From positions 2,603 through 66,602 of the forward strand of contig JAFMJN010000001.1 of NCBI GenBank assembly GCA_017853435.1: DNA of 64,000 bases. The letters are read 5' to 3'. This DNA is from Planctomycetota bacterium (lineage in GTDB: Bacteria; Planctomycetota; GCA-002687715; CAIWVZ01). The notes beneath the pieces are model-generated. The model did no database searches. It worked only from the letters and a program-made list of their open reading frames with translations, and was not told the DNA's origin. Made by a program: the position numbers and the translations under genes. Of this stretch, positions 18,516 to 64,000 are shown piece after piece (within the stretch, counting starts at the first letter, position 1; each line of letters begins with the position of its first letter).

Positions 18516-20805
<2,290 letters not shown>

Positions 20806-20817
20806 GTCGGCCTCCGA

Positions 20818-22374: not shown

Positions 22375-22404
22375 GGTGGAGATCTTTCGTAACGGCCGCG
22401 CGCG

Positions 22405-33130: not shown

Positions 33131-33251
33131 CAAAATGTCTCCGCGGTGCGGAAGCAAACCCCTGTCGCGCAGGAAGATGGCACACCATCCTCGGTCCACG
33201 CGGGGAGGGGAATGTTAGGAGATGGGACGTCGGGGTTCAAACCGCCGCACG

Positions 33252-36746: not shown

Positions 36747-37912
36747 CGGGTGGTCTCCGTGTAGTCGGCGCGTCCGGTCGGCGGGCGCACGGTCAGACGG
36801 TAGGTCTTTCCGACATTGACGGCCGTGCCGGGCGCGTGCTCCCCGACCTCCGAACGCCGGCGACCGCGGGCGACGCGCGCACCGCCCGCCACCACGTCGT
36901 CGACCTCGCACCATTCTCCGCCGACGGACACCAAGCGATCGCGGTCGCCGAGACGCGGGAGACGTCCCGGTTCATCGACGACGAGTTCACGTTCGCCGGG
37001 GCGCAACGGACGCACGAGGCGGGCCTCGGGGCGTCCCGGGGTCCCGATGGTCAACGTGATGCCGAGACGTCGAGGGAAGACGTCGTCCCGCTCGTCCGCG
37101 AGCGACGCGGGCCCGCGCGCGAGCGCGAACTGCTCGGGCGGCAAGAGGGCGCGCGTGGAATCCCACGTCTCGCGACCCGAGGCGTTCGGCGGAGCGTCGA
37201 GCAAGGCGGCTTCGTCTTCGATCGACGGAACCGAGTCGCCCGCATAGACCCGGAGGAGCAGCACGCCGGTGACGACGGGCGAGAGATTGCGGCGGACCCA
37301 AGCGGCGTCGGCGCCCGCCGGGGCGTCGTCTCCGAAGAAACCGCCCTGCGCGAGCGCGGGCGTCCGCACGCCGCGCCACAAGGTCAACACGCCCGGAGGA
37401 TCGACGTCCTCCTGCGTCAACGCCCAGCAGACTTCCATGAGGCCCGCCGGGGGCGCGAGTTGCTCGCGCGCGCCGGTCCCCGGATCTCCGCCGGTCCACG
37501 CCGCCTCGGGTTTTCCGATTTCAGGAAGCCCTCGGGCGGAACCGTCGGTCGGCTGGGACTCCGGAGTCGGGACGGGTGCCGGGCGCGCGCCGGCCGAGCG
37601 CAGCACGGGATGCTCCGACTCGCCCTGCGGAAGAGCCCGCACCAAGCGGATCATCGATTGCGGTCCGCCGCCGACGCGCGTCGCCGAGACGACGAAACGC
37701 CCGCCGGCCCCCGTGTGGATATTCGCGAGATCGTCTTCGAGAAGACCGAGCACGGTCGATGCGGACGCGAGATGCTGCCCGCTGCGTTCACCCGCGTGAT
37801 AGAGGTCGAACGAGTTCCTCATCAACTGGACGAGGAGCGTCCCGAGCGTCCCGAGCAGCGCCATCGCGGCCAGCAATTCGACGAGAGAAAGCCCCGAGGT
37901 GCGGCGACTCAT
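36743..37912 (-). CDS. Prepilin-type N-terminal domain protein (large minor pseudopilin, 389 aa).
   Basis: GLSLVELLAAMALLGTLGTLLVQL at the N-terminus. ATG at 37912 overlaps the upstream gene by 4 nt. Confidence 0.6.
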   Translation of the reverse strand: MSRRTSGLSLVELLAAMALLGTLGTLLVQLMRNSFDLYHAGERSGQHLASASTVLGLLEDDLANIHTGAGGRFVVSATRVGGGPQSMIRLVRALPQGESEHPVLRSAGARPAPVPTPESQPTDGSARGLPEIGKPEAAWTGGDPGTGAREQLAPPAGLMEVCWALTQEDVDPPGVLTLWRGVRTPALAQGGFFGDDAPAGADAAWVRRNLSPVVTGVLLLRVYAGDSVPSIEDEAALLDAPPNASGRETWDSTRALLPPEQFALARGPASLADERDDVFPRRLGITLTIGTPGRPEARLVRPLRPGERELVVDEPGRLPRLGDRDRLVSVGGEWCEVDDVVAGGARVARGRRRSEVGEHAPGTAVNVGKTYRLTVRPPTGRADYTETTR

Positions 37913-40900: not shown

Positions 40901-42963
40901 AGTTTGACGGGATTCGGACCGGTGCGGTCGAGCAAGGTGCCGACCTGCGGACGGCGATTGCCACCGCCGTTGGCGGTGACACCGCCGACCGTGCCCGGGA
41001 GTCGGGTCGCTCCGGCCGCCGCGCCCCCACGCCCGCCGCCGCCGCGCGCACCGGGATTCGATTTCGGAAGTTGATAGGCGCCCTTTTCGAGCATCCACCC
41101 GTCGGGATCGATCTTCTCGACATCGATGTTGTCGGGAACTTGGAACGCCTGGCCGTCGAAATGTTCGATGAATCCGCCGAGGGGTTCGAGCCGCGCGGGC
41201 GAAAGCCGGACGTCGCCCTGTTCCCGATCAGGGAAAACGCTGCGCTTCTCCGCGTTGCCCGAATAGAGCAGCAAACGCGGCACGCGACTCGGAGGAATCT
41301 GGTTTTGAGATTCGAACCTCTCGAGCGGCTTCGGCCACGTCGAGAACCAACGAGCCGTACGGGCCGCGAGGATCGGTTCTTCGAAATCCCACTGCGTATC
41401 GAAGAAGGTGCTGCGACGTCCGGGCGACGCGACGCGCACCTGCTCGGTGACGACGCGACGCGCACGCTCGCGGCCGGAGCGGTCGTTCGCCACCGCACTC
41501 GCCGTGATCGTGTAATGGTCGTAGGACCGGAACGCGAACGGCACCGTGTTCATGAATCCGAACAACTTGTCGCCCGGATCGATCGCGTTGCGGAACACCG
41601 CGAGCATCTGCAATTGATCGTAGATGAGGGGCGCGTTCGTCAGCAGGTTCTGCAGCGTATCGCGCAGTTGTTCGAGATTGCGAACCGGACGCGCCGCGAG
41701 CAACGCGTCCACCACCGCTTCCGCGCCGAGGCGCGTCACGCGACCGGTGGTTCCGTTCGCGCTGCGGCGTCCCCGCGTGAACTGCAAGCCCTCCACGACA
41801 CGAAGAAGGGTATCCTTCGTGGCGGTGTTCACATTCACGGGATGGCGAAGCAACGGCGCCACGAACGTCTGTTCGGAGGCGTAGGCGTTCGCGAGCGGAT
41901 CGCAGAGCGCGAGCACGGAAACGGCACCGCGCGGCTGCGAGTCGAACACCATGTTGTATTCGGTCGTCGCTCCGTTGGTGATTCGTATCACCGTGCCGGG
42001 CGAGATGCCGTCGTTCCCGCGGACCACGATCTTGTAACCGTCGGTCACGTCGGCGTTGGTCGGGTCGGTGTCCTGCGCGAGCGTCGTCGGCGCTCCGAAT
42101 CCGTCCGACGTGGGACGGCCCCCGACGAGCGAAAAGTCGCGTGCGAGTCGATCGACCTCGTTCGCGGTCAATCGGACGTCGGAGTAGAGAGCGACTTCCT
42201 TCATAGAACCCGGCCACGACGATTCGCGGCGCGTCGCGCCGGATTTGCGGGGCGATTTCCAAGGGAGCATCGCGAGTTCCCGCGCGCGGTCGTCGATCAC
42301 GAAGGCGTCGGTCTGATGTTTCCGAGCCTTGCCGCCGCCTGGCAACCCGCGCTGGCATCCGAGGAACTGGTTGCCGGTGGCCTTCGCGTACGCAATGCGC
42401 TCGCCTTCGAGGAAGAGGTATCCGTTCGTCGAAGGGAATCCGGTCGTTTCCTCGACGGTGATGACGCCGTCCGTGTCGGTGATCTCCGTCGTGAGGACGG
42501 TCCTGCCGAGCGACGCCGCGATGAGGAAGGGCGGAGACGTCCATAGATTCGGGGTCGCCTGGGAATCGCGGACCGAGACGTCCCACACGTCGCCGCGCGG
42601 ATCGTTGCGATAGAGGAGCGGAACTCCGTCCGCATCGACCAACGGCTTGCCCTTCGAATCGACGAGGTCGAACGGAATCTTGAACTCTTCCTCCGTGTCC
42701 CAAAGCGGGGTCGACATCGGATCGGTGTCGGGATTGCCGCCGCGCTCGAACTCGCGCTCGGAGGTCGTCCGTTCGAGCGACACCTTCGCATGGTCGAGCA
42801 CGGCGCGCGCCCCGACCTTGACCCGTGCCTCGGAAACGAGGTTCTCGCTCGCGCCGTTGTCGTTCAGGGCGATCGCGAGGAATGGTGCCGCAAGCACCAT
42901 CAGCCCGAGAAGGCACGAGAGGACGAGGACCAAGGCGACGCCGCGTTGCGGTCGACCGTTCAT
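37909..42963 (-). CDS. Giant GspK-like pseudopilin-family protein (1684 aa).
   Basis: ATG at 42963. N-terminus QRGVALVLVLSCLLGLMVLAAPFLAIAL matches the GspK-type (non-methylated) prepilin-like leader. The remaining ~1650 aa is Gly/Thr/Asn/Asp-rich beta-type sequence with polyglycine patches (GARGGGGRGGAAAG) and no recognisable domain. Confidence 0.55.
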   Translation of the reverse strand: MNGRPQRGVALVLVLSCLLGLMVLAAPFLAIALNDNGASENLVSEARVKVGARAVLDHAKVSLERTTSEREFERGGNPDTDPMSTPLWDTEEEFKIPFDLVDSKGKPLVDADGVPLLYRNDPRGDVWDVSVRDSQATPNLWTSPPFLIAASLGRTVLTTEITDTDGVITVEETTGFPSTNGYLFLEGERIAYAKATGNQFLGCQRGLPGGGKARKHQTDAFVIDDRARELAMLPWKSPRKSGATRRESSWPGSMKEVALYSDVRLTANEVDRLARDFSLVGGRPTSDGFGAPTTLAQDTDPTNADVTDGYKIVVRGNDGISPGTVIRITNGATTEYNMVFDSQPRGAVSVLALCDPLANAYASEQTFVAPLLRHPVNVNTATKDTLLRVVEGLQFTRGRRSANGTTGRVTRLGAEAVVDALLAARPVRNLEQLRDTLQNLLTNAPLIYDQLQMLAVFRNAIDPGDKLFGFMNTVPFAFRSYDHYTITASAVANDRSGRERARRVVTEQVRVASPGRRSTFFDTQWDFEEPILAARTARWFSTWPKPLERFESQNQIPPSRVPRLLLYSGNAEKRSVFPDREQGDVRLSPARLEPLGGFIEHFDGQAFQVPDNIDVEKIDPDGWMLEKGAYQLPKSNPGARGGGGRGGAAAGATRLPGTVGGVTANGGGNRRPQVGTLLDRTGPNPVKLDGWFRFDGAPSQATFFHLQASDDPNQFITLSRDADGRVKARVADRTLPNPAATIEEVAETTWTPEGGVWKSDTWYHAGLSYKGSKPSDVAIWWDGMKRGKAKYSTRLAGSMARADTTFTTEDADGWPDRGAAWVGREIVEFERTGTSFSVITYPNGGGNGRGRRGTSPIDHAAGERVELFGYSLPLLPQQDRGGVAIAKGGGKLASDLGPFNLASFASNAVETLTVGGGPGAPAGGPPPITMEILDPAKPNGDRLDLVLATGSVPDFSCFQPTGGYVLIVSSITGQTLPGGVNLGGLAPTVIELATYQSRAGTTLLGLSSPTDNPITGQVGGNLVISQTRQKHWVKRAGQGSAANVPTLCRVIPLSIGVTNVSSYFEPRQGQNGINPEFVSVGVPNFSDIQQHKVEWIRYTYRDTGRNLLVNADGPRLDNAVQRLLESITNPTPAAPLLVNQALRSRSQGGTTIFGYDNLLAAGAAIHGSNEEVAPVFRVPMFPGIGTIPVTNPQPGQPTSVPVPSMPGPGWGDSVTVESSGGGIRRRFDVAWSANIPEAVNGNPSIGLAAFATGGQEFTVRQVPVEDPSRETYTRLLKFPSGELPRIRGNGALAAAGGQGTSGALSPLSGRLDEVRIAPTTDERFIVWDHATMGLNASSTSNTSGGASVTQVQGIDESTDEIPLCRTVWVLREGFAQQPPLYATLPDGTKVLADEPLQSVLPENDAGLVQVGDEIIAYRQIGTGKGGGPALLRCIRGFMNTTPQKHGWGTSAVFLDFVPVSMLQGPLAADATDLNLASTGDFVANGGLVLVDEELIHYSAARNQNTLTMPPRLDEKGERAGGLFRGRFGTVTRAHDAEAIVLEMPFRHWDRGSRDNDSPELAWYGFSLPLDGAWFDGFRWEEQSPSRSVRLTATVRLRRDAPWAGPGAVAPYVMRFDDPAADGKQPHAIRAHGDGFDVRFGVSFESGCFDPVNLARHEWKMSPILEKVEVLWMDETRTLTREERR

Positions 42964-43979
42964 CGGATCACCCCCGCGAGATCGACCGCGACTTCCTCGA
43001 TCCGTTCTTCCTGAACGAGACGCAACCGAACGGGTTCGCCGTGCAGACGACGGTCGAGCCGTCCCTCCTCGTCGAATCGGATCGTCAAGGGGGTTTTGAT
43101 GTCGAAGGCCACGCCGCGCTCGAGGGAGAAGGGTTCGCCGATGCCCACGGTGACGTAACGCACGCCGTCGACGAGTCCCGCGACTCCGCCGCCGATCATG
43201 AACGTGTAGTCGGGAGCCGACGACGCCTCGCCGGCGACGAGCGTTTCCGCTTCCACGACGCCGTGCGCCGTCACGACGAGAGCGACGCCGTCGTAGGCCA
43301 CGCCGACGCGGTTCCACGCGTCGGACTCGACCACTCCCGCCGCGGTTTTCGCGCGACGGACGACGGGTTCGTCGCCGGGGCGATCCGCGAGACGCACCAT
43401 GATCTCGGCCGTCAACGAGAGGTCCTGCTCGAGGAGGAGAGCGAACGCATACGCGTCCGCACCGCTGCCGAGGCGAACGATCTGTCCGGGGCCGGAAGGC
43501 ATGAGATCCGCTTCGAAGATGAATCCCGCCGACGGGTCGAACGTAGGTGCCGACGAAAGCGCGGGACCGAGAATACGCCCGCCTCCGGCCAACTTGGCGG
43601 CCTTGCGGACGGTGCCGCCGTCGACGAGCACCGCGCCCGCGAGCAGCGCCTCGCGAGCATCCCCCATCGGCGTCCGACCGTTGTCCGCCGCGTCGAAGTT
43701 CAAAGTGGCGGCGCGACGCGAGAGCCGCACCTGCAGCGAACCGGGCGCGCCCGTCGCCGGATCACCGGGCATGCAAACGACCGACGAGAGCGCGCGGTCG
43801 GCACGGGCGAGTTGCTTTGCGCGCGTCAAGGCCGCGTGGGTGACGCGGACCGAACCGCCGAGCGCCGCCCCCTGCCCCGCGCGCGAAAGCGCATTCGCGG
43901 AGAAACCCAGAAGCACGGCGAGAATCGTCGTGACGACGAGAACTTCCGCGATGGTGAATCCCGATTGGCGTCGACGCAT
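42960..43979 (-). CDS. Prepilin-type N-terminal domain protein (GspH/I-like minor pseudopilin).
   Basis: SGFTIAEVLVVTTILAVLLG N-terminus. The stop overlaps the start of the giant gene (ATGA). Confidence 0.6.
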   Translation of the reverse strand: MRRRQSGFTIAEVLVVTTILAVLLGFSANALSRAGQGAALGGSVRVTHAALTRAKQLARADRALSSVVCMPGDPATGAPGSLQVRLSRRAATLNFDAADNGRTPMGDAREALLAGAVLVDGGTVRKAAKLAGGGRILGPALSSAPTFDPSAGFIFEADLMPSGPGQIVRLGSGADAYAFALLLEQDLSLTAEIMVRLADRPGDEPVVRRAKTAAGVVESDAWNRVGVAYDGVALVVTAHGVVEAETLVAGEASSAPDYTFMIGGGVAGLVDGVRYVTVGIGEPFSLERGVAFDIKTPLTIRFDEEGRLDRRLHGEPVRLRLVQEERIEEVAVDLAGVIR

Positions 43980-52673: not shown

Positions 52674-52746
52674 GGTCCCGTAGCTCAGTGGATAGAGCAT
52701 CGGTCTTCGGAACCGCAGGTCGCCCGTTCGAATCGGGCCGGGACCG
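52674..52746 (+). tRNA. tRNA-Arg (anticodon TCG).
   Basis: Cloverleaf by hand folding. Acceptor GGTCCCG/CGGGACC, D-arm GCTC-AGTGGATA-GAGC, anticodon arm TCGGT-CTTCGGA-ACCGC (one T.C mismatch at 27:43), T-arm GCCCG-TTCGAAT-CGGGC, discriminator G. No encoded CCA. Confidence 0.75.
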
Positions 52747-52969
52747 CTGAGATTTCGCGAGGTTTCGCCGTTCCCGCACCTCCCAGTGCCGGAGTGCCGC
52801 CATCGATCTGCGGCCCTACCGGGCCGAGGAACCGATGCCCTAACCCGGTTACCCGGCACCACCGATTGCCGCCACGCCCGTTATCCCAAGCCTTCAACAA
52901 CCGATCGCAGAGTGGATCTGCCGCAAGTAGAACCGACTAGACGCGAGTCCAGCGGTCATGGCTTGGATC

Positions 52970-53497
52970 TCAGGCGATGGTGCGGACGGTGACCCCGAAT
53001 CGCCGTTCGCTGCCCGCACGCGCTCCGTTTAAACCGACCCCGGACACGACGGTCATGGCCTCGAGTGATACGTGTCCATCGGAGTGCGGGCGCGGACACT
53101 CGGCCTGCCCTCCGCTACGGCCCCCTCTACACTCTCTGCAGCCGCACTCCCCCTTCCAGCGAAGGACCCGCACCCTCCACCGATAGAGGATGGCGTCGTG
53201 GCCACCGACACCCCGCACCGACGAGTGAAGGACGGCCACTGGAGCAACGTCCTCAGCAACCAAGATGGCGGGGGCAGGACATCTCGTATCAAAGAGAACT
53301 GCTTGGGTCACGAGACGGCGAGCAGCATGACATGTCGGACGAGTTTCCGCCGTCGACGCGAGCGACTCCATCGTTCGAGTGCCTTCCAAACTGCGATTCC
53401 GATTGCGGATGAGCGGACGCACCACACGGGGGGCAGGACACCTCGTCGCAAAGAGGACCGTTTGGGTCGGGAGAAGGCGAGCGGCGTAGGGTCCCAT
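52970..53497 (-). pseudogene. Two tandem decayed copies of the Rhs N-terminal leader module (orphan Rhs 5' remnants). Probably non-functional.
   Basis: Translation contains ...ETRPTCHAARRLVTQAVLFDTRCPAPAILVAEDVAPVAVL... and ...TQTVLFATRCPAPRVV... These are homologous to the Rhs1 leader SLASTVENRPTCHAARRRVTQTVLFETRCPAPAILVAEDHAPLAVL (58500-58693). At nucleotide level 'ggcgggggcaggacacctcgtctcaaagagaacggtttgggtcac' recurs at about 53260, 53410 and 58540. Confidence 0.5.
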
Positions 53498-53502
53498 GCG
53501 CG

Positions 53503-53973
53503 CTACTGCGGTGGTGGCTGAGATCCCCGAGCCAATGGTCGAAACTGCTCACCGTTCCCAATTTGAAATCGATAGCCGACGCACACACCATCCGAAATGT
53601 GCAGACGAAAATACGAGGGGAGTAGATCGCTAGTAGGTCCTGACTTGGACGGAATGAGAACCCCGCCCATACGGTACTCAAGAATCGTAATCGGTGGTGC
53701 GGCTGACTCCCGATCAGGGGGGCCAAGGTTGTCATTGATCCACGCAGCGGTCCTTTGCAATACCCCTTCTCGTTCAACCAAGTCACCAACCATATAGGGA
53801 CGGCGATTAACGGGGCTCAGCTCATCACTGCCGCGCATCCTCCAAATATCTGGGGCAAATGGAATGAGTCGCGCAAAATCGTAGTGAGCATCATCCGCTA
53901 CCGCGAACGCGCCTAACCCCCAACCTAAGAGACCGGCAAATGCAACGGCAACAGACCATTTGACTTGAATCAT
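53503..53973 (-). CDS. Secreted hypothetical protein in the Rhs island (accessory or immunity candidate).
   Basis: The ATG at 53973 overlaps the stop of the upstream gene (ATGA). Signal peptide MIQVKWSVAVAFAGLLGWGLGAFAVA. AT-rich relative to the flanks. Confidence 0.4.
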   Translation of the reverse strand: MIQVKWSVAVAFAGLLGWGLGAFAVADDAHYDFARLIPFAPDIWRMRGSDELSPVNRRPYMVGDLVEREGVLQRTAAWINDNLGPPDRESAAPPITILEYRMGGVLIPSKSGPTSDLLPSYFRLHISDGVCVGYRFQIGNGEQFRPLARGSQPPPQ

Positions 53974-54823: not shown

Positions 54824-57800
54824 TCACCTCGGCCTCCTCCTAGTCATCTTGCCGAATGCATATCCGTATGCCCACAGGTCCAGATCGGCGCCAACAGGGA
54901 TATCCCCCGTCGGATCGCCATCCAACTCAACACCGCCGTTGAGCGGATTGCAGCCTTTGGGTCCATGCCAAATCACGGGCCCATGCGGCATCGTCTTGCC
55001 TCCCCCAGATGGCGGAGGTGTGGTTCCACGGTGCACGGGAATCCGCCGCAATGGGTACGCGAACCGAAGCATTAGTAGCCCTCGGTCGAGTTTGTCCTTG
55101 CAGCAAGTCCAGCAATCGTCAGGCGTCTTCTTGGGAAATGCACACAGAAATCCAGCCTCGTTATTAAGGACGTCCTTCCTACTCTCACCATTCCATTTCC
55201 CACCTGCCCAGTTTTCCGTGTCAAAGAGCTCATGCGAACCCATTCCAGCTCTGGCGGCCAGCCCGCCATACTGCCTCACTGCCATACACGCTCCCACACA
55301 GTGCACCATTGCGTTGAAGGCCTCATTCGGTGCGTCCGGTGGAAATCCATGCTCCCGGAGCACCCTTGACGCCGCAGCCATCAAGCTTTCAGACTGAGTT
55401 GGAGGCGGCTCAGACAGCCCCATAACGCGCCGAGCGGCTCCGGCTGAGTTCTCTCCCATGCCCTGCTCTCCAAGCGGATCCGTTGTGTCAAGTGGCATGG
55501 AATCCACATACCCATACCCATAGACCCCCGACGCATCGAGGATCGGGTCCCTCTCAAGGAACCCGCCCGTCTCCGGCCGGTACCACCTTGCACGGTAGTA
55601 GTAGAGCCCGATCTCCTGGTTCCACTCTCGTCCCGTGTACGTGAAGTCCTGCTCGCCCTGCGACATGTTCGGGCTGTAGTACGTCCCCGTTCCGTCGCAG
55701 AACTGCACCTGACCGTAGTCGGTGTACCGGTACGTCTCGAGCACACCCCCTTCGATCGTGATTGTGTTTGTCAGATTCGACACGACACACTGCACGGTCC
55801 CCAGGAAGTCGCCCTGGTAGTAGCCCTCGTAGTAGTAACTTGGGCCTGCGTTGAAGATGTCCGCCCGTGCCCAAAGGATCTGGTCCATCAGGTAGGGGCC
55901 GTACACCCTCACGAACTTCACGCGGGACTCGCTCAGGGGGCTCGACCCGGCTTGCACCACGAACTCTTCGATCGGTTGCTCACCGTCGTAGTACGTGTGC
56001 GTCCAGAACGAGCCGTTCGTGTCCTTGCGCTCGATGCGGCGGCCAAATGGGTCGTACCGGTAGCGCCAGACATGACCGCTGCCGTCGGTCGCTTCGTAGA
56101 TCCGGTTCTCCATGTCCACCTTGACCGTCGGGGACGTCTTCTGGTTCCCGTTCGTGTCAAACGTGTTGGTCTCTTGGGAGGTCTGCGTCAGCGTCGAGCC
56201 GTTCCAGTCGTACACCGTGCGGGTGCCCAACTGGTTTTGCGTGTCGAACACGTGGTCTTCTCGGCGGACGCCCGACTGCGACGGGGTGTCGTATTGGAGC
56301 GTCTTCCGGTTACCCACTTCGTCGAGCGTGAACTGACGCCGGTAGGCGAAGTCCGTTGTGGACTCGGTGGCCGACTCCACAGCCGAGTGGCTGGAGGTCG
56401 CGTACCCCACTCCGTAAAGCGTCTTCGTCAGGCGGTTGGCACCGTCGTAGTAGTACCGGTCGCCGTAGTCGAGGACTCCGCCCAGAGTGGCCCCTGTGGA
56501 GGCGTTGATGTAGTCCCGGCGTTCGAAGGTCACTCGGCCGCCCGCGTCGTACCCGCGCTTCAGGTCGACCGTCGTTGTCCGAGTCCCGTCCTTCAGCCTA
56601 TCCCATGTGAGCTGCGTCGCGCGGCCGTACGCGTCATACGCGAGCGTCTCGCGCGAGCGGTCGGATCCAAGCGTCAACTTCGTCATCCGGCGTGGGCCAG
56701 CGAAGTCCCAGTCGGCAGCGACGACGTAGGTCGGGCTTCCGGCCGTGATGTCGTCGGTTCGCTCCAGTTTGCTCACGCGGTTCAAGGAGTCGTACGTCCG
56801 CTTCACTCCGGTCAGGCCGTCGGGATACTTCACGAGGCTAAGGAGCCCGTCTCCCCCGTACGTGTACTCGACCTTCCGGTACGTGGTTCCAGACCCGCTG
56901 TCGTCCGTCGGCGTGATCCACGTCGTTTCGGATTCGAGTTTGCCTAGGGTGTTCCACGTTCGCGTCACGAGGGAATCCCGATTGTAGGCCGAGGTCAGGC
57001 GGCCGACGCCATCATACAGGAACTTCACCAGTGTGGGGCCTACCACATTCGTCGCTAGGGAATACGACTTCGTCAGCAGCAGATTTCGGCTGTCGTACGT
57101 GTACGTCGCCGAGGACCCGTTCCGGTCGGTCCTCGTCGAGACGTTATGGGCTTGGTCGTAGGTTAATGACACGGTGTCCGAGCCCGCCTCGTCGTAACTC
57201 AGGGTCAAGCGGTCAGCCTGGTCATACTCGTAGCGGCAGGACGTGTCGCCAGACCCTCGGACGTTCGTCCGGGTGACCAGGTTGTCGTTCAGGTCGTAGA
57301 CCATCACCGTATCGAGGTAAGTGGGGCTGCCGCCTCCGGTAAGGCGCCGCCTCACCTTCGTCACCCGGCCAAAATCGTCATAGAGGTTGGCAACGACGTT
57401 GCCGTTCGGGTCCGTTGCGGTCCGGACCCGGCCAAACCCGTCCACGTCGTAGGTCGTGGTCAAGGCCGTGGCGGAGCCACCCCCTCGCTCGCTGGTCGAG
57501 GTAAGGTGCCCGTCGGCATCGTAGGCGTGCTCCACGACGTAGGTCTTCGTGGTCCCGCCTTCCACCTCGTCGGCCGTGGTCTTTGTCACCCGTCCGGAAG
57601 GGTCCAACTGGCTCGTGACAGAGTTGCCGAGGGCGTCTGTCACCTTCGAGCGGCGGCCAGCCCCGTCGAAGGTGTAGGTCGTTGTGGAAGCCCCACCCCC
57701 GCACCCGCAGGAGTCGGTCGTCTGGGTCAGGCGGCCGCTCTTGTCGTAGGACATCGTGAAGGTCACGGTCCCGCTCTCGATGTCCGTCGAGAGATCGGCC

Positions 57801-58693
57801 TTCTTGGCCCATTGGGCGGTGGACGTCACGCGGTTGTCCCCGTCGTAGGACGCCCGGGACTCGATCAGTTTCGTGTTGCCGGAGTTGTACCGCTGACGCG
57901 TCACCGCGTTCGAGTTCTTATCGAACGTCGTCGTTGCGTAGTGGGATCCCGGATCCGTCATCTTCGTCGTCCGGTCGAACCCGTCGTACGCGAGCGTCGT
58001 CGCGTTCCCCTTACCGTCTTGCATCTTCGTCAGGCGGTGGTTCTGGTCGTACTCCCGGACCGACGAGGAGGCGTAGGCCGTCCCGCTCGCCACGGTCTTC
58101 GTCACTTCCAAGCCACGCATGTCGAACGTCGTGGTTTTCGAGTTGCCGCGGGGGAGCGTCACGGAGGTCACCCGGTCTTCCCTATCGCGGGCGAAGGCCC
58201 AGATGCGGTTGGACCCGTAACTCGAACCGTACTGCATCGTGATCGCCGACACCTCGTCAAGGAGGGTGTAGGACGTGAGGATGCGTTGCTCTGAGTTCGA
58301 GATGTCGGCGTTGCCGTGGTCGCGACGGGTCTCGGTCACCCGGTCGTTTAAGTCGTAGAAGTAGTCGGTCACCTTACCTGTCGGCGAGGTCACCGAGGTC
58401 GGGTAGCCAAGCGCGTTACGCGAGATCGTGGTGGTACCGCTCGTTGGGTCGGTGATGGAGGTGACGTTGTATGCGCTGCGAACGCGCGCTGACGAGGAGA
58501 GGACTGCCAATGGGGCATGGTCCTCAGCGACCAAGATGGCGGGGGCAGGACACCTCGTCTCAAAGAGAACGGTTTGGGTCACCCGACGACGAGCAGCATG
58601 ACATGTCGGACGATTCTCCACCGTCGATGCGAGCGAATTGAGTGAGCGAATGGCCTTCGAACCAAGATTTCGGGCGCGGACGAGCGATTGCAT
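54824..58693 (-). CDS. Rhs/YD-repeat protein (Rhs1, about 1289 aa) with a short unique N-terminal leader, a full RHS core and a variable C-terminal toxin domain.
   Basis: Many YD repeats (YEYDQADRLT, YTYDSRNLL, YRYDPFGRR). Core end YYYRARWYRPETGGFLERDPI...DPLGEQG (DPxG cleavage-type motif) followed by a 230-aa unique tail. The ATG at 58693 with a GAGG SD is preferred. The ORF-track N-terminus (to 58834) overlaps the upstream membrane-protein gene in another frame. Confidence 0.75.
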   Translation of the reverse strand: MQSLVRARNLGSKAIRSLNSLASTVENRPTCHAARRRVTQTVLFETRCPAPAILVAEDHAPLAVLSSSARVRSAYNVTSITDPTSGTTTISRNALGYPTSVTSPTGKVTDYFYDLNDRVTETRRDHGNADISNSEQRILTSYTLLDEVSAITMQYGSSYGSNRIWAFARDREDRVTSVTLPRGNSKTTTFDMRGLEVTKTVASGTAYASSSVREYDQNHRLTKMQDGKGNATTLAYDGFDRTTKMTDPGSHYATTTFDKNSNAVTRQRYNSGNTKLIESRASYDGDNRVTSTAQWAKKADLSTDIESGTVTFTMSYDKSGRLTQTTDSCGCGGGASTTTYTFDGAGRRSKVTDALGNSVTSQLDPSGRVTKTTADEVEGGTTKTYVVEHAYDADGHLTSTSERGGGSATALTTTYDVDGFGRVRTATDPNGNVVANLYDDFGRVTKVRRRLTGGGSPTYLDTVMVYDLNDNLVTRTNVRGSGDTSCRYEYDQADRLTLSYDEAGSDTVSLTYDQAHNVSTRTDRNGSSATYTYDSRNLLLTKSYSLATNVVGPTLVKFLYDGVGRLTSAYNRDSLVTRTWNTLGKLESETTWITPTDDSGSGTTYRKVEYTYGGDGLLSLVKYPDGLTGVKRTYDSLNRVSKLERTDDITAGSPTYVVAADWDFAGPRRMTKLTLGSDRSRETLAYDAYGRATQLTWDRLKDGTRTTTVDLKRGYDAGGRVTFERRDYINASTGATLGGVLDYGDRYYYDGANRLTKTLYGVGYATSSHSAVESATESTTDFAYRRQFTLDEVGNRKTLQYDTPSQSGVRREDHVFDTQNQLGTRTVYDWNGSTLTQTSQETNTFDTNGNQKTSPTVKVDMENRIYEATDGSGHVWRYRYDPFGRRIERKDTNGSFWTHTYYDGEQPIEEFVVQAGSSPLSESRVKFVRVYGPYLMDQILWARADIFNAGPSYYYEGYYQGDFLGTVQCVVSNLTNTITIEGGVLETYRYTDYGQVQFCDGTGTYYSPNMSQGEQDFTYTGREWNQEIGLYYYRARWYRPETGGFLERDPILDASGVYGYGYVDSMPLDTTDPLGEQGMGENSAGAARRVMGLSEPPPTQSESLMAAASRVLREHGFPPDAPNEAFNAMVHCVGACMAVRQYGGLAARAGMGSHELFDTENWAGGKWNGESRKDVLNNEAGFLCAFPKKTPDDCWTCCKDKLDRGLLMLRFAYPLRRIPVHRGTTPPPSGGGKTMPHGPVIWHGPKGCNPLNGGVELDGDPTGDIPVGADLDLWAYGYAFGKMTRRRPR
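55502..58469. repeat. Copy 1 (Rhs1 core) of a 2,968-bp near-identical direct repeat. Its partner is at 60331-63298, period 4,829 bp.
   Basis: Nucleotide identity starts at 'atccacatacccatac' (55502 / 60331) and ends at 'ggtgacgttg' (58469 / 63298). Only one mismatch was noticed (ttgggtcgg vs ttggatcgg near 58446 / 63275). The ORF track shows identical ORFs offset by 4829. Confidence 0.9.
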
Positions 58694-58706
58694 CGCACGG
58701 GCCTCA

Positions 58707-59477
58707 TCACACGGTATCAACGTCTTTGTAGATAAATAATGGAAGTCGAACAAAACCAATCCAAATAAACTTAAGCACGTCAACTCGAACTGCGGCTTCC
58801 CGGGATGTCGGGTCCCGAAAAAGAACCGCATCAAAAATAATTCCGCGCCCGAAGAACGCTCTTAACGCTGAGCACTGTGGATGATCTGCGCTCCTATGAG
58901 TTTGGCGTTTCCAACTGAGTGCCTCGCGAATTCTTCGGCGGAGTGAATCCGGAGGCATCGACTCTTGTGGCGTGCCTGTGAACGTTTGGCCAACAAGCGT
59001 AGCCACATCATCGAAATTAATGTCAACCAACACGCCGCGTTCCATGGTCCAACACTTCTCACTACCAACCGACGAGCTCGAATGCAACGGCGCGCCCGAC
59101 AACCGTCCAAGGCGAAATGTACTCCAAACAGAATAGCCCCAAGCGACCAGTAGAACCGTAACCAGTTCCAACGACGGATGCGCCCAAGTAAAGTGCCAAC
59201 CCCCGAATTGCAACACGGCCGCTCCAAAATCACGAGTCAAAGCACACGCAAACAGAAGGGACTTCGAATCGAACAAAATAATTCCACGCCGCAGACTAAG
59301 GCTGATCCCGCCGTGAAACAGGACTAAGAACAAAGGGACAGACATTGATCGAGCAGCAACTAAATCCAGTAGCACCGTGCAGCTCATGCACGCAGCAAAC
59401 CAAACCGCCATGAGCAGTATCGCAGATGCGACCCTTGGCGGTGTTGAAGGGTGTTTGTAGACAGAAATTTTACTCAT
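58707..59477 (-). CDS. Polytopic membrane protein with a C-terminal soluble domain, candidate immunity protein for the Rhs2 C-terminal toxin.
   Basis: ATG at 59477, 58 bp downstream of the Rhs2 stop. At least four N-terminal TM helices. AT-rich (about 50% GC) relative to the flanks. The stop lies 13 nt before the Rhs1 ATG. Confidence 0.45.
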   Translation of the reverse strand: MSKISVYKHPSTPPRVASAILLMAVWFAACMSCTVLLDLVAARSMSVPLFLVLFHGGISLSLRRGIILFDSKSLLFACALTRDFGAAVLQFGGWHFTWAHPSLELVTVLLVAWGYSVWSTFRLGRLSGAPLHSSSSVGSEKCWTMERGVLVDINFDDVATLVGQTFTGTPQESMPPDSLRRRIREALSWKRQTHRSADHPQCSALRAFFGRGIIFDAVLFRDPTSREAAVRVDVLKFIWIGFVRLPLFIYKDVDTV

Positions 59478-59535
59478 ACAAAGAGGTGGATCCGTCGGCT
59501 AATGATGTTCTACCCTGTACACAACAATCAGTACT

Positions 59536-62500
59536 TCAATGCCCTAACTTCTTGGGCCTTGAATCTGCCGGGATAACCGGACGACTCCCCGGGGCTGGCT
59601 TTACGTCAACGGGACTGTGTTCGACTTCTGGAATTAGAGGCTTGCGCTTCCTGCAGCACTTTTCGGGGGCGTACCCATCTTTCGCCTTCTTCAGATTTTT
59701 TGCCGCCTCGGATTGTGCGGCTGCATACTTCTCCAGCGTTGCACGGGCATCGGAGCTCGACAGTACTTCGTAGTGGTCGTCGCTGCCCATGAATCTAGTC
59801 CAACCATCCACTACGCCAACCGAGCCACCGGCCACTTCCGCTGCTCCCAGTGCGACTCCACCAACACTGATTTCAACAGCGACTCCAACGCCTATTATCG
59901 TGCCCGCCCCACCCGTCGTGGCAGTACTACCTACTACGACCACAATGCTGACAGCCACAGAGCCCAGTGCTACTCCAGCACCTTTCACAAGGACACCAGC
60001 GCCCGCGGCCATCTCAGCCATCCCTAGAAGAATTTGCCGTTCGGTACCTTTAACAAATCGGCCCTCGTCAAGCAGCCGCTCAAGAGGTCCTGCCTTCTCG
60101 CGCCACTTGTCCCATGCGTCGTCAACGGCGTCAAGGCAACTTCTTTCGAATTCACTGCAGCATTCCGTGTCAAAACTCCCCCCATTCGCCTCACACACCT
60201 TCTTCGCATCGACACACGTTGGTCGACAAGCAAATGCCCTAAGTGAACTTCTCGACTCTTTGTTCTTCTGATAGGGAGTCGGTCTTAGTGCTTGAAATCC
60301 AGCAGGGTCGATCTGGTCTGTCGGCATCCCATCCACATACCCATACCCATAGACCCCCGACGCATCGAGGATCGGGTCCCTCTCAAGGAACCCGCCCGTC
60401 TCCGGCCGGTACCACCTTGCACGGTAGTAGTAGAGCCCGATCTCCTGGTTCCACTCTCGTCCCGTGTACGTGAAGTCCTGCTCGCCCTGCGACATGTTCG
60501 GGCTGTAGTACGTCCCCGTTCCGTCGCAGAACTGCACCTGACCGTAGTCGGTGTACCGGTACGTCTCGAGCACACCCCCTTCGATCGTGATTGTGTTTGT
60601 CAGATTCGACACGACACACTGCACGGTCCCCAGGAAGTCGCCCTGGTAGTAGCCCTCGTAGTAGTAACTTGGGCCTGCGTTGAAGATGTCCGCCCGTGCC
60701 CAAAGGATCTGGTCCATCAGGTAGGGGCCGTACACCCTCACGAACTTCACGCGGGACTCGCTCAGGGGGCTCGACCCGGCTTGCACCACGAACTCTTCGA
60801 TCGGTTGCTCACCGTCGTAGTACGTGTGCGTCCAGAACGAGCCGTTCGTGTCCTTGCGCTCGATGCGGCGGCCAAATGGGTCGTACCGGTAGCGCCAGAC
60901 ATGACCGCTGCCGTCGGTCGCTTCGTAGATCCGGTTCTCCATGTCCACCTTGACCGTCGGGGACGTCTTCTGGTTCCCGTTCGTGTCAAACGTGTTGGTC
61001 TCTTGGGAGGTCTGCGTCAGCGTCGAGCCGTTCCAGTCGTACACCGTGCGGGTGCCCAACTGGTTTTGCGTGTCGAACACGTGGTCTTCTCGGCGGACGC
61101 CCGACTGCGACGGGGTGTCGTATTGGAGCGTCTTCCGGTTACCCACTTCGTCGAGCGTGAACTGACGCCGGTAGGCGAAGTCCGTTGTGGACTCGGTGGC
61201 CGACTCCACAGCCGAGTGGCTGGAGGTCGCGTACCCCACTCCGTAAAGCGTCTTCGTCAGGCGGTTGGCACCGTCGTAGTAGTACCGGTCGCCGTAGTCG
61301 AGGACTCCGCCCAGAGTGGCCCCTGTGGAGGCGTTGATGTAGTCCCGGCGTTCGAAGGTCACTCGGCCGCCCGCGTCGTACCCGCGCTTCAGGTCGACCG
61401 TCGTTGTCCGAGTCCCGTCCTTCAGCCTATCCCATGTGAGCTGCGTCGCGCGGCCGTACGCGTCATACGCGAGCGTCTCGCGCGAGCGGTCGGATCCAAG
61501 CGTCAACTTCGTCATCCGGCGTGGGCCAGCGAAGTCCCAGTCGGCAGCGACGACGTAGGTCGGGCTTCCGGCCGTGATGTCGTCGGTTCGCTCCAGTTTG
61601 CTCACGCGGTTCAAGGAGTCGTACGTCCGCTTCACTCCGGTCAGGCCGTCGGGATACTTCACGAGGCTAAGGAGCCCGTCTCCCCCGTACGTGTACTCGA
61701 CCTTCCGGTACGTGGTTCCAGACCCGCTGTCGTCCGTCGGCGTGATCCACGTCGTTTCGGATTCGAGTTTGCCTAGGGTGTTCCACGTTCGCGTCACGAG
61801 GGAATCCCGATTGTAGGCCGAGGTCAGGCGGCCGACGCCATCATACAGGAACTTCACCAGTGTGGGGCCTACCACATTCGTCGCTAGGGAATACGACTTC
61901 GTCAGCAGCAGATTTCGGCTGTCGTACGTGTACGTCGCCGAGGACCCGTTCCGGTCGGTCCTCGTCGAGACGTTATGGGCTTGGTCGTAGGTTAATGACA
62001 CGGTGTCCGAGCCCGCCTCGTCGTAACTCAGGGTCAAGCGGTCAGCCTGGTCATACTCGTAGCGGCAGGACGTGTCGCCAGACCCTCGGACGTTCGTCCG
62101 GGTGACCAGGTTGTCGTTCAGGTCGTAGACCATCACCGTATCGAGGTAAGTGGGGCTGCCGCCTCCGGTAAGGCGCCGCCTCACCTTCGTCACCCGGCCA
62201 AAATCGTCATAGAGGTTGGCAACGACGTTGCCGTTCGGGTCCGTTGCGGTCCGGACCCGGCCAAACCCGTCCACGTCGTAGGTCGTGGTCAAGGCCGTGG
62301 CGGAGCCACCCCCTCGCTCGCTGGTCGAGGTAAGGTGCCCGTCGGCATCGTAGGCGTGCTCCACGACGTAGGTCTTCGTGGTCCCGCCTTCCACCTCGTC
62401 GGCCGTGGTCTTTGTCACCCGTCCGGAAGGGTCCAACTGGCTCGTGACAGAGTTGCCGAGGGCGTCTGTCACCTTCGAGCGGCGGCCAGCCCCGTCGAAG

Positions 62501-64000
62501 GTGTAGGTCGTTGTGGAAGCCCCACCCCCGCACCCGCAGGAGTCGGTCGTCTGGGTCAGGCGGCCGCTCTTGTCGTAGGACATCGTGAAGGTCACGGTCC
62601 CGCTCTCGATGTCCGTCGAGAGATCGGCCTTCTTGGCCCATTGGGCGGTGGACGTCACGCGGTTGTCCCCGTCGTAGGACGCCCGGGACTCGATCAGTTT
62701 CGTGTTGCCGGAGTTGTACCGCTGACGCGTCACCGCGTTCGAGTTCTTATCGAACGTCGTCGTTGCGTAGTGGGATCCCGGATCCGTCATCTTCGTCGTC
62801 CGGTCGAACCCGTCGTACGCGAGCGTCGTCGCGTTCCCCTTACCGTCTTGCATCTTCGTCAGGCGGTGGTTCTGGTCGTACTCCCGGACCGACGAGGAGG
62901 CGTAGGCCGTCCCGCTCGCCACGGTCTTCGTCACTTCCAAGCCACGCATGTCGAACGTCGTGGTTTTCGAGTTGCCGCGGGGGAGCGTCACGGAGGTCAC
63001 CCGGTCTTCCCTATCGCGGGCGAAGGCCCAGATGCGGTTGGACCCGTAACTCGAACCGTACTGCATCGTGATCGCCGACACCTCGTCAAGGAGGGTGTAG
63101 GACGTGAGGATGCGTTGCTCTGAGTTCGAGATGTCGGCGTTGCCGTGGTCGCGACGGGTCTCGGTCACCCGGTCGTTTAAGTCGTAGAAGTAGTCGGTCA
63201 CCTTACCTGTCGGCGAGGTCACCGAGGTCGGGTAGCCAAGCGCGTTACGCGAGATCGTGGTGGTACCGCTCGTTGGATCGGTGATGGAGGTGACGTTGCC
63301 GTACTGGTCTCTTGCAAACGTCGTCTCGATGGCAAGGCCGGACGGATCCACGGTCACCTTCGAGACCTGGCCGCCGCCAGTGTACGTAAATGCCACCACC
63401 TTCGACTCTGGATCGGTGACGGTGATCGGGCGGCTCAGGGAGTCATACGAGATGCTGTACCCCGACGCGCCAGTTTCTGGAGACTTCTGGCTGGTGACGT
63501 TGCCGTTGCCGTCGCGCGTGATCTCGAAGTCTCGGCCGTTTGGATCGATGACCTTCGTGAGGAGTTTCCAATCAGACGTGGTCTGGTAGACGTACTCCGT
63601 CACAAGATGGTCGCTCCCAGATCGCATCGTCGCGATGCTGGTTGCAGAGAGACCCGATGCTGTGGATTTGATGGATGCCGTGAGTAGCCCACCGGAGTAC
63701 TGGTAGAGCATCCCGTTGCCTTCAGGTGCAACGGATTTCGTGAGAAGTCCCGTCGATGAGTCCCAGTAGCACGTCGTGTCTTCGAAGGATTCGGGGGATC
63801 GCTCCTGCTTGATCTTCGTGATCGCATAGTTCGAGTCAAACTCGAAAATGCGACGCGCACCTTCCCGATCGATCTCCGTCGTCTTGTTCATCGCGTAGGT
63901 CACGACGTATTTCTGCGTCGACGAGTCGCCAAAAATCTGCTTCGTAACGCGCCCCGATCCGTCGTACTCCATCTGCAAGTACGCAGCCCCGCTCGACGCT
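59536..64000 (-). CDS. Rhs/YD-repeat protein (Rhs2), 5'-truncated by the window edge. Its C-terminal toxin domain contains a glycine-zipper hydrophobic segment.
   Basis: The ORF is open to the window edge with YD repeats throughout. The core is identical to Rhs1 over 2,968 nt. C-terminal tail after DPAGFQ: Cys-rich region, then GAGVLVKGAGVALGSVAVSIVVVVGSTATTGGAGTIIGVGVAVEISVGGVALGAAEVAGG. Confidence 0.75.
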   Translation of the reverse strand, partial: ASSGAAYLQMEYDGSGRVTKQIFGDSSTQKYVVTYAMNKTTEIDREGARRIFEFDSNYAITKIKQERSPESFEDTTCYWDSSTGLLTKSVAPEGNGMLYQYSGGLLTASIKSTASGLSATSIATMRSGSDHLVTEYVYQTTSDWKLLTKVIDPNGRDFEITRDGNGNVTSQKSPETGASGYSISYDSLSRPITVTDPESKVVAFTYTGGGQVSKVTVDPSGLAIETTFARDQYGNVTSITDPTSGTTTISRNALGYPTSVTSPTGKVTDYFYDLNDRVTETRRDHGNADISNSEQRILTSYTLLDEVSAITMQYGSSYGSNRIWAFARDREDRVTSVTLPRGNSKTTTFDMRGLEVTKTVASGTAYASSSVREYDQNHRLTKMQDGKGNATTLAYDGFDRTTKMTDPGSHYATTTFDKNSNAVTRQRYNSGNTKLIESRASYDGDNRVTSTAQWAKKADLSTDIESGTVTFTMSYDKSGRLTQTTDSCGCGGGASTTTYTFDGAGRRSKVTDALGNSVTSQLDPSGRVTKTTADEVEGGTTKTYVVEHAYDADGHLTSTSERGGGSATALTTTYDVDGFGRVRTATDPNGNVVANLYDDFGRVTKVRRRLTGGGSPTYLDTVMVYDLNDNLVTRTNVRGSGDTSCRYEYDQADRLTLSYDEAGSDTVSLTYDQAHNVSTRTDRNGSSATYTYDSRNLLLTKSYSLATNVVGPTLVKFLYDGVGRLTSAYNRDSLVTRTWNTLGKLESETTWITPTDDSGSGTTYRKVEYTYGGDGLLSLVKYPDGLTGVKRTYDSLNRVSKLERTDDITAGSPTYVVAADWDFAGPRRMTKLTLGSDRSRETLAYDAYGRATQLTWDRLKDGTRTTTVDLKRGYDAGGRVTFERRDYINASTGATLGGVLDYGDRYYYDGANRLTKTLYGVGYATSSHSAVESATESTTDFAYRRQFTLDEVGNRKTLQYDTPSQSGVRREDHVFDTQNQLGTRTVYDWNGSTLTQTSQETNTFDTNGNQKTSPTVKVDMENRIYEATDGSGHVWRYRYDPFGRRIERKDTNGSFWTHTYYDGEQPIEEFVVQAGSSPLSESRVKFVRVYGPYLMDQILWARADIFNAGPSYYYEGYYQGDFLGTVQCVVSNLTNTITIEGGVLETYRYTDYGQVQFCDGTGTYYSPNMSQGEQDFTYTGREWNQEIGLYYYRARWYRPETGGFLERDPILDASGVYGYGYVDGMPTDQIDPAGFQALRPTPYQKNKESRSSLRAFACRPTCVDAKKVCEANGGSFDTECCSEFERSCLDAVDDAWDKWREKAGPLERLLDEGRFVKGTERQILLGMAEMAAGAGVLVKGAGVALGSVAVSIVVVVGSTATTGGAGTIIGVGVAVEISVGGVALGAAEVAGGSVGVVDGWTRFMGSDDHYEVLSSSDARATLEKYAAAQSEAAKNLKKAKDGYAPEKCCRKRKPLIPEVEHSPVDVKPAPGSRPVIPADSRPKKLGH
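60331..63298. repeat. Copy 2 (Rhs2 core) of the 2,968-bp direct repeat.
   Basis: See copy 1. Confidence 0.9.

Follow-up and report, generated by a model that had tools for sequence, protein, structure and literature searches.

A probable main-plus-orphan Rhs locus in a planctomycete, with large serine recombinase relics at its cassette borders

A 64,000-nucleotide (nt) stretch of a Planctomycetota genome (GenBank assembly GCA_017853435.1, contig JAFMJN010000001.1, positions 2,603 to 66,602; the whole stretch is called the window here) contains two minus-strand open reading frames (ORFs), Rhs1 and Rhs2, which share a 2,968-bp core repeat and end in unrelated C-terminal tips. Our analysis makes it probable that they form a chromosomal Rhs (YD-repeat) polymorphic-toxin locus of the main-plus-orphan type, in which Rhs2 is the working gene, Rhs1 belongs to a 5'-truncated cassette that could be switched into Rhs2 by recombination, the shared cores are kept alike by gene conversion or cassette exchange, and the 5' end of the orphan was made by a join at a short microhomology. 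Loci of this kind are well known; what is new here is the lineage, the delivery context, the tips, the length of the repeat, the recombinase relics at the cassette borders, and the microhomology junction.

All coordinates are window positions unless prefixed by a contig label; L001 to L029 label public contigs or loci, and P0001 to P0012 label homologous proteins. The contigs retrieved by exact-protein look-ups of two candidate immunity genes (imm1 and imm2) come from many independent metagenome assemblies in JGI, ENA, and Logan and from the NCBI metagenome-assembled genome (MAG) GCA_041157525.1.

Two Rhs genes with one core and unrelated tips

The Rhs genes and the small genes that accompany them are as follows.

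59536 to 64000, minus strand: Rhs2, the main rhs gene (3' 4.46 kb only; it runs off the window end, with no in-frame stop up to 64000)
60331 to 63298, minus strand: core repeat copy 2, Rhs2 residues 644 to 1632
59536 to 60330, minus strand: tip2, candidate C-terminal toxin, with DPAG 7 codons in, a Cys-rich stretch, and two to three Gly/Ala/Val-rich hydrophobic segments
58707 to 59477, minus strand: imm2, candidate immunity gene for tip2, 256 amino acids (aa), N-terminal membrane segments, GC 0.51
54824 to 58693, minus strand: Rhs1, orphan rhs ORF, 1,289 aa from the ATG at 58693 (maximal ORF from a TTG at 58834)
55502 to 58469, minus strand: core repeat copy 1, whose first 12 nt, AACGTCACCTCC (58468 to 58457), are the microhomology at its junction with element X (described below)
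54824 to 55501, minus strand: tip1, candidate C-terminal toxin, Cys-rich (HCVGAC...CWTCC motifs), with no hydrophobic segment
53970 to 54614, minus strand: imm1, candidate immunity gene for tip1, 214 aa, two N-terminal membrane segments, GC 0.553
53503 to 53973, minus strand: orf156, part of the orphan cassette, overlapping the imm1 stop by 4 nt, with a signal-like N-terminus

The part of Rhs2 that lies beyond the window is supplied by a public contig (L001:4252-9942; 99.88% identical over 5,779 shared nt), which gives a full protein of 1,896 aa. It begins with a hydrophobic segment (aa 8 to 32) and DUF6531 (aa 172 to 227), continues with YD repeats from about aa 320 and the TIGR03696 Rhs-associated core (aa 1572 to 1643), and ends with tip2. 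Assignment of both genes to the Rhs family, as in the initial annotation, is borne out by the PF05593 RHS_repeat model (E = 2.9e-47 over 10 stretches in Rhs2; E = 1.4e-33 over 8 stretches in Rhs1), the TIGR01643 YD-repeat model (122.7 bits versus a cutoff of 15.8), TIGR03696 (51.3 bits versus 32.5), and sequence matches to Rhs shells in the PDB (8qjb, 7q97, Tse5, and Tse15). The enterobacterial RHS-core equivalog NF041261 scored 46.5 bits, far under its cutoff of 2000, and Rhs2 is therefore not filed as an E. coli-type Rhs element. Nor is it filed as an effector of a type VI secretion system (T6SS), since no PAAR- or VgrG-type domain was found in the full-length protein, which has only the segment at aa 8 to 32 and DUF6531 ahead of the repeats, and since there is no T6SS context. 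On these profile matches, the locus is filed as a putative Rhs-family polymorphic toxin.

Base-by-base comparison confirmed the two near-identical cores exactly: 55502-58469 equals 60331-63298 at an offset of 4,829, the spacing also returned by a repeat search. The sole mismatch (58448/63277) is a synonymous GAC/GAT difference 22 nt from the 5' edge on the coding strand, so that the longest exact run is 2,946 bp and the identity 99.97%; just beyond either edge, identity falls to about 25%, the random level. The initial annotation had also described the downstream Rhs1 as keeping a full core, and this does not hold, as the repeat starts at residue 644 of 1,896. Rhs1 is made up of about 75 non-Rhs codons, core residues 644 to 1632, and tip1. 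Residues 1 to 643 of the main protein, with the membrane anchor, DUF6531, and the first YD repeats, are missing, and Rhs1 thus has no export signal and an incomplete shell.

The two proteins part at the motif YGYGYVD(S/G)MP, 7 residues ahead of a DPxG motif (DPAG in Rhs2, DPLG in Rhs1), and the C-terminal domains beyond it are unrelated (best BLASTP E = 0.61), just as had been noted from the sequence at first. No match to tip2 was found in Pfam, NCBIfam, PHROG, or PDB, and among 5.8e9 proteins its sole homologue was itself; tip1 likewise had no match in Pfam, NCBIfam, PHROGs, or PDB sequence searches, its homologue search was empty, and its single-sequence AlphaFold2 model was unusable (pLDDT 39.7). 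Behind each tip, on the same strand and after gaps of 58 nt (tip2) and 209 nt (tip1), follows a membrane-protein ORF with hydrophobic N-terminal segments and a GC content below that of the window (0.653), in agreement with the AT-rich neighbors first described. The exact imm2 protein occurs in 39 blocks of public contigs, each time behind tip2. Library searches gave no homology of imm1 or imm2 to any Imm family, and no family, structure, or homologue matched orf156, imm1, or imm2. The tips may be toxic and the small genes protective; the position of imm2 suggests that it protects the producer, and orf156 may serve the orphan cassette as another immunity protein or as an accessory one. The Gly/Ala/Val-rich hydrophobic segments of tip2 (tip residues 109 to 166 by hydropathy), together with its membrane-protein partner, make a membrane-inserting or membrane-targeting toxin our working guess. 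The locus thereby supplies two toxin tips and three immunity candidates without detectable relatives.

Upstream of Rhs2, past base 64000, lie two genes (L001:1-1832 and L001:1829-4255). One encodes a GT2 glycosyltransferase; the other encodes a TMEM260-like protein O-mannosyltransferase that has TPR repeats, and the stop of this second gene overlaps the Rhs2 start codon (ATGA), which suggests co-translation and a possible glycosylation or surface handling of the Rhs protein.

A probable stored tip and its possible recruitment

In the scheme we favor, Rhs2 would be the working gene, its N-terminal anchor or export segment and DUF6531 leading into a YD-repeat shell that would enclose tip2 and end in the DPxG self-cleavage core. 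The orphan cassette (core residues 644 to 1632, tip1, imm1, and orf156), lacking the export end and the first third of the shell, would most likely be a stored alternative warhead and not an independent toxin, and imm1 may still protect against neighbors that deploy tip1. RecA-type recombination between the direct repeats of 2,968 bp would remove 4,829 bp, comprising a single repeat copy together with tip2, imm2, and X, and so fuse the main gene to tip1, and the same core homology would let incoming DNA replace tips. Direct repeats yield deletion or duplication, not inversion; of the two rearrangements foreseen in the initial annotation, deletion thus stands, with duplication beside it, and inversion falls.

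A main gene with a displaced tip behind it is a classic arrangement, and its initial recognition here is supported by precedents. Partial cores with tips are usual downstream of intact rhs genes (PMC3032704), toxin cassettes recombine with a 5' gene body that stays constant (Zhang et al. 2012, PMC3482391), and the orphans of Salmonella Typhimurium LT2, which lack initiation and export signals, are activated by recombination to the main gene (Koskiniemi et al. 2014, PMC3967940). As with rhs-main of LT2 and its rhs-CT-orphan, the shared core would be the substrate that fuses the orphan tip to the main gene (PMC3967940). The homology in LT2 is 522 bp at 95%, whereas the stretch shared here is 2,968 bp at 99.97% and makes up over half of the gene; initiation signals are absent from the LT2 orphan, whereas Rhs1 has an in-frame ATG with an upstream GAGG; LT2 Rhs is delivered by the T6SS, whereas the N-terminus here is a membrane anchor followed by DUF6531, with no PAAR, VgrG, or T6SS context; and fusion switching was shown experimentally in LT2, whereas here it is proposed from sequence. 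In Salmonella and E. coli, orphan modules are displaced pieces that hold part of the core, a tip of another kind, and an immunity gene of their own, and as a rule they are exported only after recombination joins them to the main gene (PMC3967940, PMC3032704, PMC3482391); Rhs1 fits this picture. Of the features of orphan modules, 5' truncation and the missing N-terminal/export region were found at Rhs1, and the usual absence of initiation signals was not; that absence is usual but not defining (PMC3967940). A long, near-identical retained core and a plausible start signal are unusual for an orphan.

E. coli Rhs elements, as far as the account of Jackson et al. (2009) in PMC3032704 goes, resemble this locus in having partial cores and variable tips behind intact rhs genes, cores highly conserved between copies, and mobile-element relics beside the tips. 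They differ from it in their relics, which are ISAs1-type H-repeats and not recombinase tails with a tRNA-like core, and in the NF041261 score given above. The constant 5' trafficking body with exchangeable 3' toxin cassettes and an immunity gene is shared with polymorphic toxin systems (PMC3482391), including the cdiA-CT/cdiI orphans (Poole et al. 2011, PMC3150448); unlike those described, the cassette here retains some 1,000 codons of that constant body, and neither the two tips nor the two immunity candidates fall into any described Tox or Imm family. For Planctomycetes, RHS-type toxins whose N-termini are of the Sec type have been reported in the polymorphic-toxin literature (PMC3482391, PMC3150448). 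The design of main gene, orphan, and tip swapping, worked out in enterobacteria with a T6SS, would thus extend to a planctomycete with a Sec-type anchored Rhs and no T6SS context.

Alternative tips do occur in nature on this gene body. A scan of JGI metagenomes with the last 59 core residues found three contigs (L017 to L019) in which the same main gene (99.6% nt identity; N-terminal 797 aa identical) carries a different, third tip (tip3), the breakpoint lying 39 nt upstream of that in the window. Natural populations therefore hold at least three alternative tips on one gene body, and the tip-swapping polymorphism sought by comparison with other strains is present. Tip1 and tip3 are weakly similar (E = 0.007).

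Two further features were seen on the tip3 contigs. On L018, an IS1595-family transposase gene (L018:4183-5241, minus strand; DDE_Tnp_IS1595 plus zinc ribbon) stands between tip3 and a 182-aa multi-pass membrane ORF (L018:5314-5862), the likely immunity gene of tip3. On L017, a 1-nt indel (L017:3534-3585) splits the main Rhs gene into ORFs of 812 and 1,086 aa, either a pseudogene or an assembly error.

Recombinase relics and the 5' junction of the orphan

Three relics of large serine recombinase (LSR) genes lie at the borders of the cassettes.

58470 to 58701, plus strand: element X, decayed 3' tail of an LSR gene, 232 nt between imm2 and core copy 1
58470 to 58601, plus strand: coding relic of X, ending in SSATKMAGAGHLVSKRTVWVTRRRAA and a stop, with about 100 nt of the gene's downstream flank after it
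58537 to 58550: 14-nt match of X to the 3' end of tRNA-fMet
53429 to 53489, plus strand: element X'', the shortest LSR-tail relic, GAGHLVAKRTVWVGRRRAA and a stop, starting 14 nt past the orf156 stop
53214 to 53430, plus strand: element X', LSR-tail relic whose tail ends at 53330, with a 14-nt tRNA-fMet-like core at 53266 to 53279

All three have the same orientation, X'' lying between orf156 and X', and X' downstream of the orphan cassette. Read on the plus strand, they share an end peptide with the stop in register, SSATKMAGAGHLVSKRTVWV(T/G)RRRAA, and X and X' are 78% identical over 217 nt without a gap. The tails align with the C-termini of five homologous proteins (P0001 to P0003, P0012, and P0004), again with the stop codon in register, and the X tail is identical or near-identical to those of P0002/P0003 and to copies in L007, a locus in a distant uncultured planctomycete MAG. 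A full HMMER search with P0001 linked the tail to the C-terminal 130 to 170 residues of proteins with Resolvase, Recombinase, and Zn_ribbon_recom domains, that is, large serine recombinases, and P0001 also matched the PHROG integrase family phrog_95. There is a conserved 46-nt site, GACCCAAACCGTTCTCTTTGAGACGAGGTGTCCTGCCCCCGCCATC. With five full-length or partial homologues as queries, no match to the catalytic part was found in the window at E <= 1e-3; the surviving tails span 19 to 44 codons, and since no catalytic part survives in the window, the elements are pseudogene tails and not genes.

The junction between X and core 1 falls at the 12-mer AACGTCACCTCC, which occurs in the window solely at the two repeat starts. 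Read on the other strand in L007, the 12-mer codes for recombinase residues EVTF at the homologous place, one codon out of register. The simplest reading of these sequences is an illegitimate join at this microhomology, linking the Rhs core to the 3' part of an LSR gene that stood tail to tail with the preceding immunity gene; it would have made the 5' boundary of the orphan. Relics and junction together offer a concrete, testable account of how an orphan 5' end arose.

In the tails, the codons for MAGAG read as the reverse complement of TCCTGCCCCCGCCA, which forms the final 14 nt of the initiator-type tRNA-Met (tRNA-fMet) in L007. The recombinase relic of L007 reads directly into this tRNA, and P0004 (L026), a 481-aa partial ORF without a Resolvase domain, likewise does so, with LMAGAGFEPATSGL; a recombinase that reads into a tRNA in this way has, by its sequence, the look of an integrated element at a tRNA (attL-like). 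L028, a locus from another sample, matches L007 at 99.9% identity on that side of the 14-nt core where the recombinase lies, and carries an X-type arm in place of the tRNA on the other side; comparison with L007:2241-3341 and L007:12714-13124 put the switch of partners exactly at the core. An exchange at the core, or directly beside it, therefore distinguishes closely related strains, which we take as evidence that these sites recombined recently. L007 also carries a 1,063-aa truncated Rhs bracketed by two recombinase relics, so that the pattern of a relic beside a truncated Rhs recurs in a distant planctomycete.

Such findings raise an unlikely explanation for the origin of the array, one that is compatible with a main gene and an orphan: the cassettes may have been cargo of, or captured at the attachment (att) sites of, integrative elements whose LSR targets the 3' end of tRNA-fMet, leaving a decayed tandem array that homologous recombination would not have made by itself. 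X, X'', and X' are direct relics that bracket the orphan cassette, each 6 to 17 nt from the stop of the last cassette gene, and their tRNA-like codons, the ORFs that run into the tRNA in L007 and L026, the bracketed Rhs of L007, and the L028/L007 switch all point the same way, as does an intact homologue (L027; P0006, 633 aa) located at one end of an element that has a DUF3854/AAA_25 primase-like gene. Integrative elements arranged in tandem at tRNA genes, with attL, attP-like, and attR junctions and large serine integrases, similarly have direct repeats carrying a tRNA 3'-end core beside a recombinase gene end. Unlike those, however, the window has no catalytic domain and no tRNA-fMet, the recombinase being known here from tails of 19 to 44 codons, and no intact recombinase occurs in L001 to L019 either. 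Several relic-bearing loci (L020 to L025 and L029) are without Rhs, the genes upstream of Rhs2 are translationally coupled glycosyltransferases and not element genes, and the L007/L028 switch could be homologous recombination in a shared stretch of about 100 nt. Known large serine recombinases recombine attP with attB, not two attP-like sites. Finally, the relics may just mark a hotspot of mobile-DNA decay, as do the H-rpt insertion sequence (IS) relics at E. coli Rhs loci (PMC3032704).

A more specific form of this idea, which we think improbable, is that the Rhs cassettes of this lineage are moved or captured by site-specific and not only by homologous recombination, each ending at an att-type site that overlaps the LSR 3' end and mimics the tRNA-fMet 3' end. 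If so, an LSR acting in trans could excise or insert units of core, tip, and immunity gene, and the locus would be integron-like for toxin warheads. The evidence permits such mobilization of Rhs cassettes by a serine recombinase, short of establishing it, and the relics that flank the cassettes hint that toxin-cassette traffic may be tied to integrative elements.

Other identities considered for X were rejected. A structured RNA was ruled out because Rfam found only tRNA, and folding z-scores were +0.13 for X and +1.54 for X'; a degenerate tRNA-fMet pseudogene, because the match is confined to the last 14 to 16 nt and the remainder is recombinase tail whose stop is conserved; and an att site of a tyrosine integrase, because there is no integrase and the homologous proteins are serine recombinases.

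Downstream of the tip3 cassette (L019:2600-3051) lies the motif CCCGTGTGGTGC, with which X' and the L007 repeats begin as well and which may be an IS end. It is followed, on the opposite strand, by a C-terminal relic of an rve-type DDE transposase (ERNHQGIGNNLIAP...RLGGMFNYDHR), homologous to the sequence adjoining the recombinase relics in L020 to L025.

An improbable alternative: Rhs1 as an independent toxin

The initial annotation pointed to a start codon and Shine-Dalgarno sequence of Rhs1 and proposed that both genes may be expressed. Could Rhs1, then, be translated from the ATG at 58693 in coupling to imm2 and deployed as a second functional toxin? The start signals exist: the ATG lies 14 nt past the imm2 stop with GAGG 8 nt upstream, its frame is continuous with the core, X is invariant across six contigs, and public gene callers predict the ORF, the call in L003 starting at the same ATG. 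The roughly 75 codons between this ATG and the core are, however, the antisense strand of X, that is, of a recombinase pseudogene tail. X' has this antisense frame open too, though no Rhs lies behind it (ORF 52970-53497), and for that reason the open leader looks like a by-product and not a selected feature. Because the leader is not a native N-terminus, a working independent toxin is unlikely on sequence grounds, all the more as the missing residues 1 to 643 include the sole hydrophobic export or anchor segment, DUF6531, and the first YD repeats, and as orphans in Salmonella depend on being fused to the main gene (PMC3967940). Two independently functional Rhs toxins are thus a distinctly improbable explanation, and independent expression of both finds no support; we infer that the orphan is silent as it stands.

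The 175-aa ORF at 52970-53497 (minus strand), called as a gene in L012 and L014, is the antisense of the X''/X' relics and is probably spurious.

Near-identity of the cores

A repeat that is 99.97% identical and starts at a microhomology, the classic sign of an unequal illegitimate crossover, could be taken for a very recent tandem duplication of core, tip, and immunity gene with no later exchange or conversion. This explanation is very improbable, since the two units have unrelated tips and unrelated immunity genes, the flank that would have been co-duplicated is X/X', at only 78% identity, and the junction is common to all sampled strains though their cores differ from that of the window by 0.2 to 0.3%. 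The gap between 78% in X/X' and 99.97% in the cores argues instead for cassette replacement and/or gene conversion; the part of the first description that invoked a simple recent duplication does not fit, and the part that invoked conversion is likely. A duplication may have been the starting event, necessarily followed by replacement or conversion.

Within the main-plus-orphan scheme, near-identity would be kept by gene conversion between the copies and/or by cassette exchange among conspecific strains that share the core. Across six public contigs, tip2, imm2, and X differ by 1 single-nucleotide polymorphism (SNP) in about 11 kb, and the cores by 0.23 to 0.31%. One SNP patch (62821-63022, equal to 57992-58193 plus 4829) occurs both in a contig linked to core 2 (L002) and in contigs linked to core 1 (L003, L005, and L006); this fits concerted evolution by gene conversion, which from these sequences we regard as likely, and the SNP picture is also consistent with cassette exchange among strains sharing the core. 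Dating the duplication by the divergence of flanks between strains was dropped, as the flanks are almost invariant; the argument for conversion therefore turns on the contrast in polymorphism between core and flank, which short-read collapse could mimic.

Core SNPs are clustered in short patches in L002 to L006 (57992-58226 and 62821-63022), for example, 5 SNPs in 58 nt, which suggests mosaic imports or conversion tracts.

Physical reality of the repeat

All four junctions between repeat and unique sequence are crossed by independent public contigs that are 99.5 to 99.9% identical to the window: N-terminal region/core 2 by L001, L002, L017, and L018; core 2/tip2 by L001 to L006; X/core 1 by L001 and L003 to L006 (at least five samples); and core 1/tip1 by L008, L009, L012, and L013. 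The repeat is thus no duplication made by assembly, the refutation that the initial annotation had named for itself. L001 extends from the upstream genes across the complete main gene, tip2, imm2, and X to 248 nt inside a second core; L003, L005, and L006 start in tip2 or in the final few hundred bases of core 2, pass imm2 and X, and reach 2.1 to 2.7 kb into that second core; and since these four come from different samples and projects, it is certain that a core lies downstream of imm2 on the same molecule. L008, L009, L012, and L013 run from the last 30 to 141 nt of a core through tip1, imm1, and tRNA-Arg into the chromosomal flank. An assembly artefact, with a single Rhs copy duplicated or two strains' alleles stitched together, is hardly credible against such contigs, although the two copies are never present together on one public contig, contigs from short reads break within the repeat, and a repeat that had been collapsed or polished would show just such near-perfect identity.

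Several contigs end inside the repeat, and L008 stops exactly 141 nt into it, which is its k-mer size (k = 141); the early remark that the repeat is a hazard for assembly is therefore borne out. A near-identical repeat of about 3 kb is a practical warning, as each public short-read assembly of the species breaks there.

The main-plus-orphan reading has to be weighed against several observations. The predicted fusion of the main gene to tip1 is on no contig or read, the short-read contigs not spanning the repeat and all tip1 contigs stopping within 30 to 141 nt of its edge or short of it. The 99.97% identity may have been inflated by short-read polishing of the source assembly over both copies, the lone surviving mismatch lies 22 nt from unique flank, where phasing is easiest, and the shared SNP patch may reflect short-read collapse of the repeat and not conversion. 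The start signals of Rhs1, with the frame open through X, would allow translation of a truncated 1,289-aa product. The microhomology rests on a relative (L007), the LSR parent gene of this lineage being gone; neither tip matches a recognizable fold or family in Pfam, NCBIfam, PHROGs, or PDB; and no PAAR, VgrG, or T6SS gene was found within the window, which bears on the delivery route.

Surroundings of the locus

One further feature marks the chromosomal border of the locus.

52674 to 52747, plus strand: tRNA-Arg(TCG), converging with the Rhs locus

In public contigs, tip1 and imm1 are joined on their far side to this tRNA-Arg and an FHA chromosomal flank exactly as in the window, a further point against an assembly artefact. 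The rest of the window is housekeeping chromosome, including PheT, ThrS, CinA, and an aldehyde dehydrogenase. A scan of 52.4 to 64 kb for terminators and promoters gave none above shuffled expectation and was uninformative for this taxon.

L007 (28% aa identity) was the sole related locus returned by a scan of species-representative genomes. It has in common with the window an Rhs fragment, the tRNA-Arg flank, and the recombinase-tail motif, and thus appears from its sequence to be a decayed version of the same tRNA-Arg-adjacent Rhs locus. Window positions 52701-52802, the 3' half of the tRNA-Arg and its flank, are 84% identical to L007:3642-3743. L007 keeps only this 3' half of the tRNA, beside a 266-aa internal Rhs fragment 74% identical to Rhs2 residues 805 to 1050, and an intact initiator tRNA-Met lies 1.4 kb away.

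Elsewhere in the window, a 1,802-aa ORF (37909-43317, minus strand) had no Pfam match at E <= 1e-5, and further large uncharacterized ORFs of 738 to 851 aa lie at 19837-22392 (plus strand) and 30983-33199 (minus strand).

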